From assembly GCA_964634695.1 (NCBI GenBank), contig CAZWJX010000007.1:1-30461 (forward strand): a stretch of 30,461 nt of DNA, written 5' to 3'. This stretch comes from an uncultured Syntrophobacterales bacterium (lineage in GTDB: Bacteria; Desulfobacterota; Syntrophobacteria; Syntrophobacterales; Thermodesulforhabdaceae). The translations under genes and the position numbers were made by a program. How positions within the stretch are numbered: the stretch's first letter is position 1; each line of letters starts with the position of its first letter. The notes beneath the pieces are model-generated. The model was not told where the DNA came from and ran no database searches. It saw only the letters and a program-made list of their open reading frames with translations. Positions 1-10,435 of the stretch are shown here, piece by piece.

Positions 1-2
1 TC

Positions 3-170
3 CGCCGCTGGACGTGTCCATCATGCAAGACAGAACACGATCGTGATGTGAATGCGGCTTTGAATATCCAGCGTTTATCGCTGACTACCGTGAGTTGCAC
101 GGGAAGTTACGCCTGTGGAGAGGATGGTAACGTCCTCAACGAAGCAGGAATCAGACCATGTCATATTTGA
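3..170 (+). CDS. tnpB: TnpB (RNA-guided endonuclease, IS200/IS605/IS607 families), C-terminal fragment truncated by window edge
   Basis: Frame 3 (absent from the ORF track) reads RRWTCPSCKTEHDRDVNAALNIQRLSLTTVSCTGSYACGEDGNVLNEAGIRPCHI*. This is the second CxxC of the Zn ribbon followed by the HDRDxNAAxNI RuvC-III motif typical of TnpB. Confidence 0.9.
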   Translation, partial: RRWTCPSCKTEHDRDVNAALNIQRLSLTTVSCTGSYACGEDGNVLNEAGIRPCHI

Positions 171-188
171 ACATGGTTTGAGCAACGG
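84..188 (+). ncRNA. Probable TnpB omega-RNA (reRNA) scaffold overlapping the tnpB 3' end; boundaries approximate
   Basis: omega-RNAs are encoded over the tnpB 3' end and the IS right end. Visible hairpin TCAGACCATGT(151-161)/ACATGGTTTGA(171-181) with one G-T pair, followed by GCAACGG (182-188). Confidence 0.55.
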
Positions 189-516
189 TCGATCTTACAA
201 ATCTCACAGAGCTTGAATAGGCGTCTCTGGATGCCTGGAAACTATGGAAAACCTACAACCTGATGTTGTAAAATTCAATTTGGTAAGTGGAGGAATTTAT
301 TTCCGCTTTAGTTAACTGATTTTTGGTTATATAATTTGTTAGCCAGAGTTTGACCTAAGGTCCATACTATATGATCCATCTCCCTGAATCAATTTTCTGC
401 CAGCTTATCAGAAAGATGAAAAATTTTGTTTGCGTACCGGTTAATGCCGCAAGCCAGAATATTTTGAAGAGGGCGGGAAAAATTACTTTTGAATAACTAC
501 AGGGGAGAGAGAGAAA

Positions 517-1428
517 ATGGCTAGATCAGTTCTTGGTGGGCTTGGTGCAGCTATTGTGTGGTATTTTCTGGTCCTGTATGTGTTACCTTTTCCCAGGATG
601 GAACAGATATTCTGGGAAAGAGGCTTGACCAGTGTGATAATATCATTGGTGGGATTTTGTGGCATCTCTTCCGCTCTCAATGTTCTGATTAAAAGGAGAG
701 CTCTGGAGAAAAAGGTTATACAAACACTTTCCGCTATCGAACACAACCGGAGAGGAATAGAATTGATCGAACACTTCAAGAAGTCGATGACGGATAAGGT
801 GCTCAGGGAGTATGAATATTTGTCTCTTTTTCCAACCCTCTGTGTGTCCCTCGGATTTCTTGGCACGGTCATAGGCATAGCTGGAGGAATAGAAGGGCTT
901 TCATCGGTTTTTGTTAATACCGGCGATATGATAGTGGTCAGAGAGGGTATTTTTAAGCTGGTAACATCTCTGGGATTAGCCTTTGATTCTACTCTACTGG
1001 GTTTAATCTTTAGCATTATCATTGTCATGATGATCACGATCGGGAAAAAATGGTCACTTAAAACCATATCAGAGCGTTGCAACGCAAAAACCGACGAGAT
1101 TATTTTGTCCGATAAGGGCGAGATTGCTATGGCTCCTCAATCAGGCGTTTCTGCTTTGGCGGCGTCTGCCATCAGAGTTGAGGATGTTCAGCCTGAAAAA
1201 ATCGAGAAGTATATTGAAGTGATGACCAGGGTAGGAGAAAATCTTGCTTCTTTGATGGAAATGGAAAAGAAACTGGCAAATTATGCCGATCAATCTTCTG
1301 TGTTTTCAACTCTAAACGAACACTTGCGTGAATCGAACATGGTTTTCAAAGCTATACTGAAGTTTCTTAAAGACTATACAACCCACAAAGCTTATCGAAG
1401 CCAGGAGGAATTAAGGGAGGAGCAATAA
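517..1428 (+). CDS. MotA/TolQ/ExbB proton-channel family membrane protein (303 aa)
   Basis: Two N-terminal hydrophobic segments, then the family-like pair LGFLGTVIGI and SLGLAFDSTLLGLIFSIIIV, then a ~120-aa helical C-terminal tail. Confidence 0.85.
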   Translation: MARSVLGGLGAAIVWYFLVLYVLPFPRMEQIFWERGLTSVIISLVGFCGISSALNVLIKRRALEKKVIQTLSAIEHNRRGIELIEHFKKSMTDKVLREYEYLSLFPTLCVSLGFLGTVIGIAGGIEGLSSVFVNTGDMIVVREGIFKLVTSLGLAFDSTLLGLIFSIIIVMMITIGKKWSLKTISERCNAKTDEIILSDKGEIAMAPQSGVSALAASAIRVEDVQPEKIEKYIEVMTRVGENLASLMEMEKKLANYADQSSVFSTLNEHLRESNMVFKAILKFLKDYTTHKAYRSQEELREEQ

Positions 1429-1433
1429 AACTT

Positions 1434-1925
1434 ATGATGGACAACAATCTCGAACAATCCTCTATGAACTTTGCAACCGTCATATTGGGGTTGGTGGCTG
1501 TATTTGTCGTTGTTATCGTTATTACTGCAGTGAGCAATGCAAAAATCACTCTGGACGTCAAGGCGAGAAAAATAAATGGCAGATATCCTTTATTTGTTAT
1601 TTTTGAAAAAGATAGGGCTATGGTCCTGTGTACGGACTCTTACTCTTTATCAGATGAAGCAAAAGGATCATTACAAAATATATGCGGCTTTTTAGATTCT
1701 ATGAATTTATCGTCTGCATCACCTGAAGAAAGCTTGAATGCACTGAAAGCACTTCTATCCTCTCCAACATTTGATAAAAACCAATTCTATATTTTTGGTC
1801 TTATGAAACCGAGTGGAGTAAGGGCTTTCTATAAACTGGAGTCAGTATTGACAGCAGAGGACCTTAACGGAAGGTTTGCTCCCATACCTGAAAATTGGAA
1901 TTTTAGAATTGGACTCGAAAGGTAA
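1434..1925 (+). CDS. Single-pass membrane protein, divergent ExbD/TolR-like (paralog 1)
   Basis: N-terminal TM FATVILGLVAVFVVVIVITAV; 5 nt after the MotA-like gene; C-terminal LMKPSG..F..P motif shared with the next gene. Confidence 0.6.
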   Translation: MMDNNLEQSSMNFATVILGLVAVFVVVIVITAVSNAKITLDVKARKINGRYPLFVIFEKDRAMVLCTDSYSLSDEAKGSLQNICGFLDSMNLSSASPEESLNALKALLSSPTFDKNQFYIFGLMKPSGVRAFYKLESVLTAEDLNGRFAPIPENWNFRIGLER

Positions 1926-1929
1926 GGCT

Positions 1930-2451
1930 ATGAATCGAGCTTTTCACGGTATTTTTTTGATGAATATACTCGCAGTCTTCGTTTTGATTATTCTTTGTCT
2001 GGCGCTCACTCTTTTAAGACAGCCAGTTCTGAGCGTAAAAGGGTTGTTTATGCCTGTCGAGAGCAAAATCGAAAAAAACTTCTTTTATATGGAACTGGAT
2101 AGAAACTTTGTTATACCTGTGGGATTTGGTGGAGAGTGCGATAAAAGATTCTATAGAAAGATAAACTACGGCTCAGATTTGCTCCTATGTGTTCCATCTA
2201 AAGACTTTCCGGAGAAGCAAAAAAATTTTCTAAATTACCATGAAGAACGATCCGTTTTTAAAGAAGAGCTTGGCCGTCTCCATCCTTCCAGTAATTATGT
2301 AGTGTTGTTGGTTCGCCCATCTGCATTTGGCTTTTACCACGAAGTCGCTGAAAAAATCCTTTCAATGGGATTTGAAGTTGGGTGGTTTCCTCTGGATTCT
2401 CAACGCCCTGTCGCTTTTAGCTCAAAGGGTAAACTTATAGGAAGACAATAA
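1930..2451 (+). CDS. Single-pass membrane protein, divergent ExbD/TolR-like (paralog 2), 173 aa from ATG 1930
   Basis: N-terminal TM FLMNILAVFVLIILCLALTLL; C-terminal LVRPSA..F..P motif. ATG 1930 lies 4 nt after the upstream stop, so the ORF-track start at 1876 is probably too early. Confidence 0.6.
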   Translation: MNRAFHGIFLMNILAVFVLIILCLALTLLRQPVLSVKGLFMPVESKIEKNFFYMELDRNFVIPVGFGGECDKRFYRKINYGSDLLLCVPSKDFPEKQKNFLNYHEERSVFKEELGRLHPSSNYVVLLVRPSAFGFYHEVAEKILSMGFEVGWFPLDSQRPVAFSSKGKLIGRQ

Positions 2452-3377
2452 TGGGCTCAAACATTATTAAGTACTTAAGCACTTTTGTTGTCATCTTGGC
2501 ATTTTTACTTTCCGGATGCTGGGAAAGAAAACCTATAAACTACAGTGAACTTAACGCAGAAGAACTTGAGATACTTTACCAAAACGGCAGAGAACAACTT
2601 CTTCAAGATGTATGTGAAGCTTATGCCAGATGGTACCTCGAAAGACCGGAAACAGAATGGTGGATAGAGGGCGTTGAATATAAAAAGAAAGATGGAGAAA
2701 AACTTCTGCACTATTGCTCCAAGTCCTTCAAGATACATAAGAACAAACATTCCGCCTGTTACTTAAAGTCATATTATCAGTCGCTTGCTGAGTCAGGCGA
2801 AATATATCTTGCAGAATTTATCTTTTATCTGAAATACTGCGGAAACGATAATGCCTATCGTGCTTTTATTGAAAAGGATTCCCGAGTCAGCGCAATAGCC
2901 GATCATTCTCTCGGGTCTCTAAAATACCTTGCCGGCTCCAAGGATCCCAATGAGTTCCTTAGTCGGATCAAGAAAGTTTCTGCTCTATTTCGACAATATA
3001 TAAATGACTTCAAACAAATCGAAAACGAGGTTGCCCTTTTTTCTGGACAAATTAACGATCTTATTATCGTCTTCGAAGGAATATCAAAAACTCTGGAAAA
3101 TATGGACAGGGTTTTAACTCAAATTAAGGTGACCTCAAAAGATGTATCGACAGCTAAATCTTATTTTGAAGAAGTCCTCTGGCATATCAACACTCTGGAA
3201 GGTGATTTAACTAAGTTTCTTGACATTGTTGTTAAAGTAAACAGTAGCCTTTCCAGCACTGAAAGTCTTAACAAAGATCTCATTCTGGACGTTAAGGATA
3301 CGATTGAAGAATTCAAAAAGCGGAGAGACACATGGATCAGTAATTACGATGGCTATTTAGAAGGCTCAAAAGGATAA
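2451..3377 (+). CDS. Lipoprotein of unknown function with C-terminal coiled-coil region (308 aa)
   Basis: Signal peptide II with lipobox LSG/C (Cys23); heptad-rich helical C-terminal third; TAATG stop/start overlap at 2449-2453. Confidence 0.75.
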   Translation: MGSNIIKYLSTFVVILAFLLSGCWERKPINYSELNAEELEILYQNGREQLLQDVCEAYARWYLERPETEWWIEGVEYKKKDGEKLLHYCSKSFKIHKNKHSACYLKSYYQSLAESGEIYLAEFIFYLKYCGNDNAYRAFIEKDSRVSAIADHSLGSLKYLAGSKDPNEFLSRIKKVSALFRQYINDFKQIENEVALFSGQINDLIIVFEGISKTLENMDRVLTQIKVTSKDVSTAKSYFEEVLWHINTLEGDLTKFLDIVVKVNSSLSSTESLNKDLILDVKDTIEEFKKRRDTWISNYDGYLEGSKG

Positions 3378-3383
3378 TTTCTT

Positions 3384-5384
3384 ATGGGAGAATATAAGAC
3401 CAGCGAATTTTTTCATCTTTTAAGGCCCAAAATAATTATCTTGGTGGTCTTAATTGCCGTTGTGGGGGGTATTCTTTTGTTGGAGATGATGAACATTAAA
3501 GCCTCACAGACCGTGCGGCAAGAATACATCATTATTGCTTCGGGGTTAAAAAAACAGGCTGAAGAAGCCTTAAAGGAACGTGCCTACGTTCGGGCTCGGC
3601 GGTATCTTGATCGAGCTCTTTATTTTGCCGAAAAAGGCGGCACAATATTTCATAAAAACCCGTTGGAGCTTGAAATTAAAGCTCTCATTGCAGGTAATGA
3701 AGAGCTTAAAAAGGTGGCGAAAGGATACGCACCCCTTGGCGAAAGATGGGTAAGCCGTGAAGAATTTATAGAGCTTTACACAAAGTCTCAACAGATCAAA
3801 AAAGAATTAAGAGCAAATCTTACCAGAGCCGCTATAGCTTTTGCCGGTGAAGACTACGACGAAGCCATAAAGTATTACGAGCAGGTTCTAACTGAGCTTA
3901 ATCAAGCATCTATCCAGGGATTCAGTGAACTTGATCGGGAGAAAATAGAAAAAAGTTATAAAAAGGCTCTGTTACTTCGTTCCAATAAAAGAGCAGACAA
4001 CTTTTACAGAAACGGTGAATACGAACTTGCAGTCGTGGAATATGAAAAGGTTCTGAATATTATTGAAAGTATGAATGATAAAGATTCAATTTTTGCTCAG
4101 AAAGTCCAAAAAACGGTGGTTGAGGCGCTACTATTGTCAGCCGAAAAATGGCTTAAAAATGACAATTTTAACCCCGTAAATGCCCGTGAATTCATCGAAA
4201 AAGCCAGAACCATGTTGTATTCTCACCCATTTTTATCCACGGAGGCAGTTTCGTCACTTGAAGATCGTATAAAAATGACAACGAAGAAGATGGAAATACT
4301 GAGAGCCAGAAAAATCCATGAATTAGCCCAGGATCTTGTCAAGGCTAAAGAAGCTCGCTTTATGGATCACATTAATAACGAGATGGCAAGGTTACTTCAT
4401 GGCTCCAATAATAAACCTGAAAAGGATACGGAAAAAACCGATCTTACAGTTAACGAAAAGAATATGCCCCCGGATTATCAGGCTGATGCAAACGTTATTA
4501 TGTATGAGAGAGCCAGATCAATCTTGAAAGATTCGGTTGCAATGCTTCAAAAGAGTGGGTTCGGGAACGATACCGATGTTCGTGCCGTTGTAATGGAGCT
4601 CCAGAAAGACATTGATAACTTGAGGAAAATTGAGGAAGCTCAAAAGTTCGAAAAAGCTCAACTGTGGGAGCATTTAACAGCCGCTATGAGGCTGGCAAAG
4701 GCAAAAGAAGAAAGCGAGAAATATGACGAGGCCATAGATACTTACAGAGAAGTACAGAATACGATTAACAAAAGTAAGTTTCGAAGCGAAGCTGCCTTTG
4801 CGTCGATGCTTGATGAAATTAATGAGAATCTCAAGCGGTTAAGTGCGAAAAAAAGAAGCGCTGGATTAAGGCAAATAGTCGCTTCGGCAGAAGAAAAAAT
4901 TGCTTCAGGAAAGCTAGATGAGGTGATCCTGCTTGCTCAAGGCGTTGATTTTCGCTCAGATGATCCCGCTATTAAAAACGATCAAAAAATAGAAACACTT
5001 GCTCGCAGATTGTCCTGGCTCGGCACTTTAGCGAAGGAAATGCGTCAGAATTTTGCTTTAGCTGTCGAACAGGAGGCACTAATATTCTTCCAGCAACACG
5101 GTATCAAAAACGTCTCGGTTCGAAAGGATGAAACTACCATCGAATACTGCTCCCTTATGGATAATAACTCCAGAGGGCGCTGTCTCACTTTTAACTTGAA
5201 AGGTCGCACAATTGTGTACACCGAGGCTCAACAACGATATGCTTCCTACCCTGTAATTTGCGATGTTAGACTTCGATTTTGTGAAGACAGTGTTGTTTAT
5301 CAGCATAGAGAGCTGAAGTGTCGAGAAGCGAAAATAAAAAGTTCCCTGGGCCCAGAGCCTTTATCATTCGGACAACTCAGATAA
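3384..5384 (+). CDS. Membrane-anchored TPR-like helical-repeat protein (666 aa)
   Basis: N-terminal TM IIILVVLIAVVGGILLL; TPR-like segments AGEDYDEAIKYYEQVL, NGEYELAVVEYEKVL and EKYDEAIDTYREV; Cys-containing alpha/beta C-terminal domain. Confidence 0.7.
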   Translation: MGEYKTSEFFHLLRPKIIILVVLIAVVGGILLLEMMNIKASQTVRQEYIIIASGLKKQAEEALKERAYVRARRYLDRALYFAEKGGTIFHKNPLELEIKALIAGNEELKKVAKGYAPLGERWVSREEFIELYTKSQQIKKELRANLTRAAIAFAGEDYDEAIKYYEQVLTELNQASIQGFSELDREKIEKSYKKALLLRSNKRADNFYRNGEYELAVVEYEKVLNIIESMNDKDSIFAQKVQKTVVEALLLSAEKWLKNDNFNPVNAREFIEKARTMLYSHPFLSTEAVSSLEDRIKMTTKKMEILRARKIHELAQDLVKAKEARFMDHINNEMARLLHGSNNKPEKDTEKTDLTVNEKNMPPDYQADANVIMYERARSILKDSVAMLQKSGFGNDTDVRAVVMELQKDIDNLRKIEEAQKFEKAQLWEHLTAAMRLAKAKEESEKYDEAIDTYREVQNTINKSKFRSEAAFASMLDEINENLKRLSAKKRSAGLRQIVASAEEKIASGKLDEVILLAQGVDFRSDDPAIKNDQKIETLARRLSWLGTLAKEMRQNFALAVEQEALIFFQQHGIKNVSVRKDETTIEYCSLMDNNSRGRCLTFNLKGRTIVYTEAQQRYASYPVICDVRLRFCEDSVVYQHRELKCREAKIKSSLGPEPLSFGQLR

Positions 5385-5470
5385 CGTTTTTCTAGTTCCG
5401 TAAGGCAAGACATATCCGCCATTCAGAAGTCACTTTGAGCCGGTAGAATTCTACAAAAAGACGGCAAACT

Positions 5471-7643: not shown

Positions 7644-7894
7644 TGATTGTTTCGCTAAGTCCGCAATGATATTTTTTGTGTCATTGCGAGGAGCGAAGCG
7701 ACGAAGCAATCTCTTTGTTGTGACAAAAGAGAGATTGCCACGGCTGCTTCGCAGCCTCGCAATGACGGATTCGGTGGAGATTGCCACGCGCCCTTCGGGC
7801 GCTCGCAATGACACTTCGAGATTGTCACGGCTGCCTTACGGCAGCCTTGCAATGGCACCCACACTTGTCATTGCGAACGAAGCGAAGCAATCAC
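7644..7894. repeat. REP/BIME-like array 1 (5 full units + 1 degenerate)
   Basis: A 7680-7713, B 7731-7766, B 7777-7812, B 7818-7856, A 7867-7894; degenerate reversed A at ~7644-7669. Confidence 0.95.
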
Positions 7895-7936
7895 CACGGC
7901 CGATGGATAGTCTAGTCCGTCATCCCGGTGATTAAC

Positions 7937-8938: not shown

Positions 8939-9878
8939 ATGGAAATTACAGAATTGCAGAAGAAAACTTCTCAGGCGATAGTAAATATTTTTGAAACTGG
9001 TACTCCTCATGGTCATTATGGAAAAGTAACTCTTATACCCGGTGATCCCGGACATCTCACTTATGGAAGATCGCAGACCACGCTGAGCAGTGGAAATCTT
9101 TACCTTCTTATTAAGGATTACTGCAGCAGAGAAGGAGCTGTCTTAAAAGATAAACTTTCAGCTTACCTTGACCGTCTTTCAGCTAGGGATACGTCTCTTG
9201 ACAATGACATGTCGTTTCGGCGCCTTCTCAATGAAGCGGGAGACGATCCGGTGATGCAGGAAACTCAGGATAAGTTTTTTGATCGCATTTACTGGAATCC
9301 GGCAGTAAGCATCGCAGAAAAAAATGGGCATGACGAAGGTTCTTAGTGTCTGTGTGGTCTATGACAGCAAAATCCATGGTTCATGGAAACTTGTTCGTGA
9401 TCTTACAGAGCAAAAAGTGGGAACTTTTACTCAAGAACTGGAAGACAAATGGATTACCTGCTACGTTGAAACTCGCCGAAACTGGCTGGCAAATCACCCA
9501 ATTAAAATTCTCAGGAAAACCGTTTATAGGATGGATGCTTTTATTCAACTTATAAAGGAAAACAACTGGGATCTAGATCTTCCTTTATGGGTTTGCGGAA
9601 TAAGGCTTGATGAAGCTACTATAACCGGGCATTTTCTCAGAGCTTCAGCAACAGTTACCGAAGTGAGACTTTTAATGTTGACGCTACCCTACCAGAAAGG
9701 CGAGGATGTTCGTGAAGTACAAAAGGCTTTGCAACGTCATGGCTACGATGTCGAAGCAGATGGAGTCTTCGGTCCAGAAACGGATCTCGCCGTGAAAAAC
9801 TTTCAAAAACGATATGGCCTTGTGGTCGATGGTATTGTTGGGCCTGCGACTCTTGCAAAACTTGGTATTGAAGATTAA
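8939..9878 (+). pseudogene. Chitosanase (GH46)/lysozyme-like hydrolase with C-terminal peptidoglycan-binding domain, split by a frameshift (ORFs 8939-9346 and 9324-9878)
   Basis: N-part AIVNIFETG...GDPGHLTYGRSQTT...MQETQDKFFDRIYW; C-part VVYDSKIHGSW...YRMDAF plus a PG_binding_1 domain (GEDVREVQKALQRHGY...DGVFGPETDLAVKNFQKRYGLVVDGIVGPATLAKL). Deleting one A from the A7 run at 9318-9324 gives one 312-aa ORF (...AEKMGMTKVLSVCVVYDS...). Confidence 0.8.
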
Positions 9879-9892
9879 CCGGGGAGGTTGAG

Positions 9893-10435
9893 ATGGCGGA
9901 TATACACGTACCGTCGATTCCGTATCGAAATGTAAGGCCTCACGTATCCACAGGCGATGCAATTTTATGGAAAGGACGTAACTTGCTGGCAAGGATGATA
10001 AGACTATGGACGCCTTTTAACCATGCTTCGCTGGTTGTACGGCTCCAGAGGTACGACACCCTTGAACAGAGAGTTTTTCTGGTAGAAGCTATGGCTACCG
10101 GGCTGGAACTTCGCCTGCTTTCCAAACGGTTAGAAAACTATGACGGTGAAGCTTTCTGGTTTCATGTGGAAATGACGGAAGATCAACGATCACAAATACT
10201 GGATTTTGCCCTTACAAATTGTGCATCAGGCATTCCTTATGACTATGAATCTTTATTCAAAAATATGCTTGGAAGAGTATCTGCAGACGCAACAAGATAC
10301 TTCTGTTCAGAATTTGTATTCGATGCATGGGTTCACGCCGGCGTAACTTCATACCCCCCATCGGGTTCGGCTCCCAGACCTGGTGACATTCCAAAATGGG
10401 CTAAAGGAATATTAACCCAAATTACTGCTGAATAG
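9893..10435 (+). CDS. Circularly permuted NlpC/P60 (YiiX/YaeF-like) papain-fold hydrolase
   Basis: TGDAILW...FNHASL...YDY...YFCSEFV, with His before Cys as in permuted members; GGGGAGG SD. Confidence 0.8.
   Translation: MADIHVPSIPYRNVRPHVSTGDAILWKGRNLLARMIRLWTPFNHASLVVRLQRYDTLEQRVFLVEAMATGLELRLLSKRLENYDGEAFWFHVEMTEDQRSQILDFALTNCASGIPYDYESLFKNMLGRVSADATRYFCSEFVFDAWVHAGVTSYPPSGSAPRPGDIPKWAKGILTQITAE

Follow-up and report, generated by a model that had tools for sequence, protein, structure and literature searches.

A window of 30,461 nucleotides (contig CAZWJX010000007.1 of assembly GCA_964634695.1, from an uncultured Syntrophobacterales bacterium) carries an operon of five genes, here called A, B1, B2, C and D, which looks like an undescribed relative of the 5:2 stator-type machines and not a categorically new kind of system. 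The operon is real, conserved and very rare. It encodes a MotA/TolQ/ExbB-family membrane protein (A), two paralogous single-pass membrane proteins (B1 and B2), a lipoprotein (C) and a membrane-anchored tetratricopeptide repeat (TPR) protein (D). We consider it quite probable that these proteins form a stator-type inner-membrane complex of the 5:2 kind, built from A and a B1/B2 pair, with the B domains, C and D assembled on the periplasmic side. For the explanation as a whole, in which such a complex has an accessory sensing role, we find the case evenly balanced. An earlier interpretation made from the DNA letters (hereafter, the sequence-only reading) had proposed an undescribed system, and this holds: no characterised system fits the five genes, and the literature searched contained no description of the five-gene family or of the B-type domain. 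The ion-driven 5:2 motors comprise few families (Mot, Exb/Tol, Agl, GldLM and Zorya), and with each addition a further way emerged in which membrane energy is coupled to work or signalling. The operon also brings with it a larger unannotated superfamily of B-type proteins, which points to more members with a heteromeric axle and a new periplasmic domain.

The sequence-only reading had described five co-oriented genes with gaps of 5, 4, −1 and 6 nt, and the coordinates of the open reading frames (ORFs) bear this out (Table 1). These distances follow from the choice of the ATG at 1930 as the start of B2, in place of the TTG at 1876 in the mechanical ORF; the ATG is taken as the true start because all homologs begin at this position. 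Purine-rich stretches resembling Shine-Dalgarno sequences lie upstream of all five starts, including this ATG. About 350 nt between a TnpB remnant and gene A are free of genes, and the first gene 3' of D is on the opposite strand, so the unit comprises these five genes. Simple scans for a promoter and a terminator gave nothing above chance.

Table 1. Positions in the window of the five genes, of motifs and residues discussed in the text, and of the TnpB remnant.
Feature	Position	Strand	Description
Gene A	517-1428	+	303 aa ORF
Motif SLGFLGTVIGIAGGI in helix 3 of A (residues 111-125)	847-891	+	Counterpart of G-x-x-G-T-V in helix 2 of TolQ/ExbB
Motif AFDSTLLGL in helix 4 of A (residues 155-163)	979-1005	+	Invariant D157 (acidic) and T159 (pore-type)
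Cytoplasmic helical tail of A, ~125 aa (residues 178-303)	1048-1425	+	Predicted; conserved end motif
Gene B1	1434-1925	+	163 aa ORF
Asn12 codon of B1	1467-1469	+	Conserved helix Asp position; FMDIITG in homologs, SMNFATV in the window
Gene B2	1930-2451	+	173 aa ORF
Gly7 codon of B2	1948-1950	+	Conserved helix Asp position; RSFLDIITN in homologs, RAFHGIFLMN in the window, with a one-residue insertion
Gene C	2451-3377	+	308 aa ORF
Gene D	3384-5384	+	666 aa ORF
3' end of TnpB (IS200/IS605-type RNA-guided nuclease)	3-167	+ (frame 3)	Reads CPSCKTEHDRDVNAALNI to the stop codon, at the left edge of the window

The order A, B1, B2, lipoprotein and membrane-anchored repeat protein recurs in at least eight independent lineages at 35–66% protein identity. 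The sequence-only reading had allowed that the five genes might not be syntenic elsewhere; the order is in fact kept on the independent contigs L001, L002, L003-5, L006, L007, L008/9, L010 and L021 (the last of which begins at B1), and is therefore not a chance arrangement. A search with protein A across 5.8 billion proteins returned 10 clusters only, and a scan of one genome per species over 185,579 species returned two clear loci and one weak match. The members come from Thermodesulfobacteriota, “Deltaproteobacteria” and Spirochaetia (L010, a metagenome-assembled genome). L006 is a 97% identical twin of the window, L007 shares 66% identity with it, and L001, whose protein is identical to an NCBI entry for Thermodesulforhabdus norvegica, shares 42%. 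Between the window and L007, the ratio of nonsynonymous to synonymous substitution rates (dN/dS) was 0.08–0.24 in all five genes; with dS saturated, this is a rough indicator that purifying selection probably acts on all of them. L012 from Latescibacterota, which matched at 29% and lacks a comparable operon, was left out.

The assignment of gene 1 to the MotA/ExbB family in the sequence-only reading was confirmed. Residues 85–180 of A match Pfam PF01618 (MotA/TolQ/ExbB) with 24.6 bits, above the gathering score of 22.9 (E = 2.3e-5), and all nine members of the A family match this model (best E = 6.2e-8). The closest named relatives of A are ZorA models: PADLOC ZorA2 matched at E = 2e-10, with a match reaching residue 285, and in NCBIfam ZorA_4 gave 35.4 bits against a cut-off of 500 (E = 5.5e-9) and ZorA_2 21.3 against 100. 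A sequence search of the PDB with A, where ExbB, TolQ and MotA structures are well represented, gave no match. Hydropathy and charge predict four membrane helices (approximately residues 8–26, 40–58, 104–125 and 158–176) with the N-terminus inside, and the charge distribution predicts a basic cytoplasmic loop between helices 2 and 3. In the alignment of A proteins, S111, L112, G113, L115, G116, T117, V118, G120 and G124 of the helix 3 motif are invariant (invariant stretch SLGFLGTV), and the helix 4 motif has AFDTTL or AFETTL as its counterpart in distant A proteins. An hhalign comparison with TolQ/ExbB paired the two motifs with “GLFGTVWGI” and “ALIATAIGL” and placed T159 on the conserved Thr of TolQ/ExbB, with the weak statistics of E = 0.0047. 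The cytoplasmic tail ends in the consensus KPKxYRIxEE (HKAYRSQEE in the window), and the tails of long-tailed relatives end in the same terminal motif (RPRTVRLIQE, RPKKISLVEE, KPRRILLLE and KPRRITLVE).

The B proteins had been described as two ExbD-like paralogs. Their paralogy stands (hhalign probability 96.4%, E = 1.3e-9), and the ExbD part of the description found no support: PF02472 (ExbD/TolR) had no hit at E ≤ 1 in B1 or B2 and none in 70 members of their superfamily, and no significant match to a PDB entry or fold was obtained. Hydropathy and the alignments give each protein a short basic N-terminus, a single membrane helix with the N-terminus inside, and a periplasmic domain with conserved Cys (C66 and C84 are invariant in B1). 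The B2 domain is of alpha/beta type, spans approximately residues 44–173 and contains the motif VRPSAF...GFEVGW. No Pfam, NCBIfam or PADLOC model matched B1 or B2, MotB/OmpA profiles were unmatched by the B proteins, and profile searches of the PDB with B1 and B2 found neither ExbD nor TolR; with all five proteins, the PDB sequence and profile searches returned coiled-coil, ankyrin and TPR noise only. Comparing the B profiles with E. coli TolR and ExbD by hhalign gave a non-significant E = 0.2–0.3; with a target profile of two sequences only, this is a weak negative. A full-length AlphaFold2 model of B2 reached a pLDDT of 79, and its membrane helix spoiled the Foldseek alignments; the prediction was hence repeated for the domain only, giving from the 70-sequence alignment a pLDDT of 91.4 and a pTM of 0.84, with two beta-hairpins followed by alpha-beta-alpha-beta-beta. 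Among the non-significant Foldseek hits of this model were ExbD (8pek, E = 0.37, TM-score 0.49; 8vgd, TM-score 0.56) and TolR (5by4, TM-score 0.43); such ExbD/TolR hits spanned E = 0.37–1.1 and TM-scores of 0.43–0.56 and stood amid ribosomal S11 and RNase H-like folds. An ExbD-like nature of the periplasmic domain is thus unproven, and the likeness to MotB, ExbD and ZorB is confined to the N-terminal helix, whose cytoplasmic end in homologs reads R-S-F-L-D-I-I-T-N (B2) or F-M-D-I-I-T-G (B1). Weak hits to the ZorB/MotB helix occurred in b1 of L019 (E = 0.004) and in 4 of 70 members.

That gene 4 encodes a lipoprotein was borne out by a signal peptide and a lipobox, LLSG-C23, whose cysteine is invariant in homologs together with C55 and C89. 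C consists of a family-specific, Cys-rich helical N-domain (approximately residues 24–135) and a variable, coiled-coil C-terminal half; C of L008/9 is the N-domain alone (127 aa). With the N-domain profile, one further protein only was found among the 5.8 billion, in a search that the word index may have restricted. No Pfam, NCBIfam or PADLOC model matched C, its C-terminal half yielded coiled-coil hits only, and it has no OmpA-like domain. The TPR-like character claimed for gene 5 likewise held, with Pfam TPR_6 and TPR_2 above their cut-offs and an N-terminal membrane helix in addition (residues 17–35); positive charges precede this helix, and the bulk of D is predicted to be periplasmic by the positive-inside rule. 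The N-module of D (approximately residues 40–200) is conserved and combines TPR-like repeats with a G-x5-G-x-W motif; a variable TPR region and a Cys-containing alpha+beta domain (approximately residues 560–666) follow. Beyond the N-module, the window, L001, L007, L010 and L021 have TPR and the small alpha+beta domain, L002 and L008 have ankyrin repeats, and L003 (202 aa) has nothing. The membrane helix of D is not conserved across homologs and has no conserved His or SHLS motif, so docking of the TonB/TolA type is unsupported. NCBIfam hits of C and D to SpiroCoCo and Tgl fell below the cut-offs and were dismissed as noise from coiled coils and TPRs.

Gene order, family assignments, paralogy, conservation, the status of the helix aspartate and the genomic contexts were observed directly; from these, we infer the stoichiometry, the heterodimer, the topology, the partner contacts and the role. 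A would form an outer ring, and the N-terminal helices of B1 and B2 would insert into it, most likely as a B1:B2 heterodimer; the A5:B2 arrangement with the B helices inside the ring is suggested by gene linkage and the helix motif. B1 and B2 are read as the motor subunits because their genes lie directly 3' of A (gaps of 4–5 nt), they are single-pass proteins with the N-terminus inside, homologs carry the Asp helix motif, and the two are paralogs. On the periplasmic side, the B domains, lipoprotein C and anchored protein D may form an assembly, which is proposed because of the lipobox of C, the positive-inside rule in D, and Cys pairs that are conserved in each of B1, B2, C and D. The complex would face the cytoplasm with the helical C-terminal tail of A, which ends in the conserved motif.

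The helix aspartate of such motors has been described as universally conserved and essential; D26N in ZorB abolishes defence (PMC11946911), and D22N in MotB is a protonation mimic (PMC9389320). Over the 70 B-superfamily members, this column is at least 90% conserved, and both B1 and B2 have Asp in L001, L002, L003, L008/9 and L010. The exceptions concentrate in the subclade of the window (window/P0012, P0011, P0019 and P0029). The window and L006 have Asn12 in B1 and Gly7, with a one-residue insertion, in B2; L007 has Asp in B1 and Asn in B2; and L021 has Ala in both. Because the 97% identical twin has the same residues, the Asn and Gly of the window are not sequencing errors. The pattern implies that the B2 aspartate was probably lost once, at the base of the subclade, and that two independent losses in B1 followed. 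In cyanobacterial relatives, described below, b1 copies lack the Asp and b2 copies have it, which fits a B1:B2 heterodimer able to work with a single Asp.

The sequence-only reading had called the machine ion-driven. At the level of the family, this agrees with the helix aspartate; for the window copy the claim is weakened, and canonical ion-driven rotation appears doubtful there. With the aspartate lost from both B proteins, the window copy would either pass ions through another site, for which the invariant Asp157 in helix 4 of A is a candidate, or have stopped rotating and serve as an assembly that is static or gated. In GldLM, the key protonatable, acidic residue is located on the pentamer subunit. 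Replacement of the Asp in several lineages, in genes apparently under purifying selection, constitutes a natural experiment on which residues conduction and rotation require.

The B-type domain extends far beyond the five-gene family. An exhaustive HMMER search with the B2 profile returned 2169 clusters at E ≤ 1e-3, of which 357 reached E ≤ 1e-10. Where source names were given they read “hypothetical”, except for one trypsin-fusion member named after its peptidase domain, and no Pfam family matched over the shared B domain in superfamily members. Of seven contexts outside the five-gene family, six have a B-like gene that directly follows a PF01618 gene and is accompanied by a second B-like paralog. 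In L013 (1–9871) and L020 (1–9706), an A protein of 306–318 aa is combined with two B-like paralogs of ~300–590 aa, one of which carries a trypsin-like peptidase fusion; these triads directly follow GAP1-N2 (GTPase-centric conflict system) genes and a gene for a ~1000-aa protein, and the paper defining GAP1-N2 does not mention MotA-like partners. L014 and L019 encode an A of 500–620 aa with b1 and b2, and the L019 triad adjoins MazE-PIN and a Schlafen/AlbA_2 gene. The cyanobacterial three-gene triads are found in Microcystis aeruginosa NIES-2481 p1 (L022, 6935–9535) and Anabaena cylindrica PCC 7122 pANACY.03 (L023, 6491–9070) and encode an A of 466–470 aa, a b1 of 153 aa and a b2 of 231–236 aa, annotated as MotA/TolQ/ExbB family or hypothetical only. 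The Anabaena triad is flanked by type III-B cmr genes and a viperin gene, and the Microcystis triad lies in an island with an N6-methylase, a nucleotidyltransferase and SLATT protein, a helicase, DUF559, HNH and GIY-YIG nucleases and an integrase. In hmmsearch, b1 copies scored best with the B1 profile and b2 copies with the B2 profile; this separate conservation indicates that the A+B1+B2 triad is old.

Phage defence was one of the options raised by the sequence-only reading. The defence islands of the distant triads strengthen this option beyond the analogy with AglRQS, and an involvement of some superfamily branches in phage defence is likely; the contexts of the five-gene loci themselves are mixed. 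They include the TnpB remnant in the window, a ParE toxin gene and two small unannotated genes upstream of the operon in L008, and ClpP and DUF123 in L003-5, and are otherwise metabolic. A search of phage genomes for B2 relatives found none. A wider proposal would make the triad an undescribed 5:2-type class with a heterodimeric axle and a new periplasmic domain, in which the long-tailed branches act as Zorya-like anti-phage sensors, the five-gene branch adds a lipoprotein/TPR sensing module, and the ion site has moved to the helix 4 Asp of A in the subclade of the window; taken together, we regard this as unlikely. 

Some members of the superfamily showed further features. In P0058, P0083, P0084, P0138 and P0163, a signal-peptide-like N-terminus seemingly replaces the Asp-bearing helix, which suggests soluble periplasmic versions of the B domain. 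The PADLOC defence candidate PDC-S66 was matched by 6 of the 70 B-like relatives (best E = 2.9e-8), with some matches to PDC-S06; two 20-member scans did not identify the matching members or region. Two five-gene loci have an extra upstream gene that is not found in the window, encoding a 266-aa low-complexity lipoprotein-like protein in L002 (374–1174) and a protein of ~170 aa with a hydrophobic N-terminus in L003-5 (L003 1925–2434).

In the window, the GC content is 0.39–0.40 in the operon and 0.39–0.43 over positions 1–5400, against 0.44–0.52 in most of the remaining sequence; together with the TnpB remnant, the low value fits horizontal acquisition of positions 1–5400. As for the role of the operon, we tentatively propose an accessory, horizontally mobile sensor and transducer of envelope state that works like ZorAB. 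We lean slightly towards such a sensor over a force transducer of the Tol/Agl kind or a housekeeping transducer of the Ton/Tol type because of the ZorA-like A, the conserved tail end, the rare, patchy and mobile-looking distribution, the swapped repeat domains and the relatives in defence islands. Several observations weigh against a stator-type sensor. Both B proteins of the window lack the aspartate held essential in 5:2 motors, and the B2 domain model had no significant Foldseek match in the PDB or BFVD (none at E < 0.07 in the PDB). The operon contains no effector gene such as a nuclease or protease, and its neighbours in the window are mostly housekeeping genes (a Crp-type regulator, a Liv-type ABC transporter and rubrerythrin). 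It is distant three-gene relatives with long tails, and not the five-gene family, that supply the evidence from defence islands. Finally, in the seventh context outside the family, a B-like gene of Thermosynechococcus (L018, 5330–5989; 219 aa, Asp present) adjoins PBP2 and M23-peptidase genes, is divergent from them and has no MotA-like neighbour, so the domain is either not always linked to a motor or the motor is encoded elsewhere.

The sensor role has to be weighed against a machine like Tol or Agl, in which an A5:B1B2 complex driven by the proton-motive force pulls on or moves partners in the periplasm and outer membrane; D would be the spanning arm, like TolA/TonB, and C the lipoprotein, like Pal/CpoB, and the machine would serve envelope maintenance, surface motility or secretion. 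The layout parallels that of AglRQS with its Glt partners and that of exbB-exbD-exbD operons, all domains other than those of A are predicted to be periplasmic, and D has a TolA/TonB-like topology (an N-terminal helix, a long helical region and a small C-terminal domain); in addition, Tol-Pal includes the TPR protein CpoB, which is often a lipoprotein (PMC12204202). However, the helix of D is unconserved and D lacks the SHLS/His coupling motif, homologs of D do without the C-terminal part or have it exchanged (TPR, ankyrin or absent), and TonB_C, TolA_C, OmpA-like, TolB and receptor domains are missing. The rare and patchy spread is also unlike that of a core envelope machine, A is nearer to ZorA than to TolQ/ExbB among its named relatives, and the motor Asp is lost in the lineage of the window. 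On this evidence, we judge force transduction to be rather unlikely. A plain ExbB-ExbD-TonB or TolQRA system that has diverged beyond recognition has in its favour only the general PF01618 match and the presence of ExbD/TolR among fold matches, all of them non-significant; since no family member matches PF02472, TonB_C or TolA, A has no PDB sequence match despite the many ExbB, TolQ and MotA structures, A has four helices and a long tail, and the partners are family-specific, we give this almost no credence.

The loss of the aspartate raises the alternative that the operon of the window genome is a degenerate or repurposed remnant, which neither conducts ions nor rotates and is either a static periplasmic scaffold or decaying. 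Asn in B1 and Gly in B2, shared with the near-identical L006, and the two Ala residues of L021 speak for such a remnant, as do the effects of D-to-N changes in ZorB and MotB (PMC9389320 for the latter). Simple decay is argued against because the ORFs are intact (all five in the window and in L006, and those of L021 as well) and because the pore-type residues T117, D157 and T159 of A are still invariant. The low dN/dS of every gene against L007 points the same way, and two independent losses with the genes retained suggest that an Asp-independent function is tolerated in this subclade; a key protonatable residue on the pentamer subunit, as in GldLM, would be compatible with such a function. We therefore consider a remnant distinctly improbable, and a sensor of envelope state remains our tentative preference.

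Other features of the window lie outside the operon. At approximately 170–500, where any omega-RNA or right-end element would lie, there was no Rfam match at the gathering threshold; the Rfam scan returned a single tRNA and nothing else. An intergenic region at 7660–7900 contains REP-like palindromic units of the form GAGATTGCCACG-stem-loop-CTCGCAATGAC, in three direct copies with inverted partners, and on either strand this cluster produces overlapping ORFs that are spurious. One cell-wall hydrolase gene with a frameshift could account for two ORFs that overlap in different frames, 8939–9346 (the N-terminal half of a GH46-like domain) and 9324–9878 (ending in PG_binding_1). A C92 papain-like amidase is encoded after them, at 9893–10435.

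Among known systems, Ton and Tol-Pal (ExbB-ExbD-TonB and TolQ-TolR-TolA-TolB-Pal) share with the operon the MotA/TolQ/ExbB fold family, single-pass B proteins, a long bitopic partner and a lipoprotein. They differ in their ExbD, TonB_C, TolA, TolB and Pal domains, which are absent here, and D has no SHLS motif. The sequence-only reading had recognised no TonB or TolA C-domain, TolB, Pal/OmpA domain, flagellar gene or receptor, and Pfam, NCBIfam and PADLOC scans of the five proteins and their neighbours agree. In particular, PF03544 of the Ton system was unmatched in all five proteins, and the TolA C-domain, TolB and Pal were unmatched in Pfam and NCBIfam, with tol_pal_ybgF reaching merely E = 0.32 on a TPR stretch.

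With ZorA-ZorB of the anti-phage system Zorya, a proton-driven 5:2 sensor motor, the likeness lies in ZorA as the best named relative of A, in the C-terminal cytoplasmic helical tail, in the resemblance of the B helix motif to that of ZorB/MotB, and in the long-tailed relatives (466–620 aa) that share the tail-end motif of A and occur in defence islands. The differences are considerable: A scores far below the ZorA cut-offs (35 vs. 500 bits), and its tail is ~125 aa long, against the ~70 nm tail of ZorA. Two distinct B subunits are present, with a novel periplasmic domain instead of the OmpA-like peptidoglycan-binding domain, the extra components are periplasmic (the lipoprotein and the TPR protein), and the Asp is lost in the window. 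PADLOC, Pfam and NCBIfam scans detected no Zorya effector gene in the operon, and neither the OmpA-like domain of ZorB nor ZorC, ZorD, ZorE, ZorF or ZorG was matched by B1, B2, C or D.

The AglR-AglQ-AglS motor of Myxococcus likewise combines one MotA/TolQ-like subunit with two different B-type subunits and has periplasmic TPR/lipoprotein partners. The sequence-only reading had placed the operon closest to this layout of one A and two B proteins; the layout was found as described, and membership of the B proteins in the TolR/MotB family was not recovered by profile. AglQ and AglS are described as MotB homologs with TolR-like peptidoglycan-binding domains and the conserved Asp (PMC9389320), whereas B1 and B2 of the window match neither ExbD/TolR nor MotB/OmpA profiles and lack the Asp. 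General scans, which included no Glt-specific models, recognised no Glt-like gene, and the distribution of the five-gene family is rare and patchy. Closer in gene arrangement are two published cases (PMC12204202), namely TolQ-like genes that go with a heterologous pair of vWA proteins bearing the helix, and PVC-group operons that combine TPR, tolQ-like, two tolR-like and vWA genes. Their periplasmic domain is vWA. In the five-gene operon it is a small alpha/beta domain, A has four helices and a tail, and lipoprotein C and the anchored TPR protein D are the partners. What they share with the window family is a co-occurring TPR gene and the tight linkage between a TolQ-like gene and the genes for a heterologous single-pass pair with an Asp helix and a non-ExbD periplasmic domain. 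These heterologous non-ExbD pairs and the operons of TPR, tolQ-like and two tolR-like genes are the closest published parallel to the gene logic of the five-gene operon.

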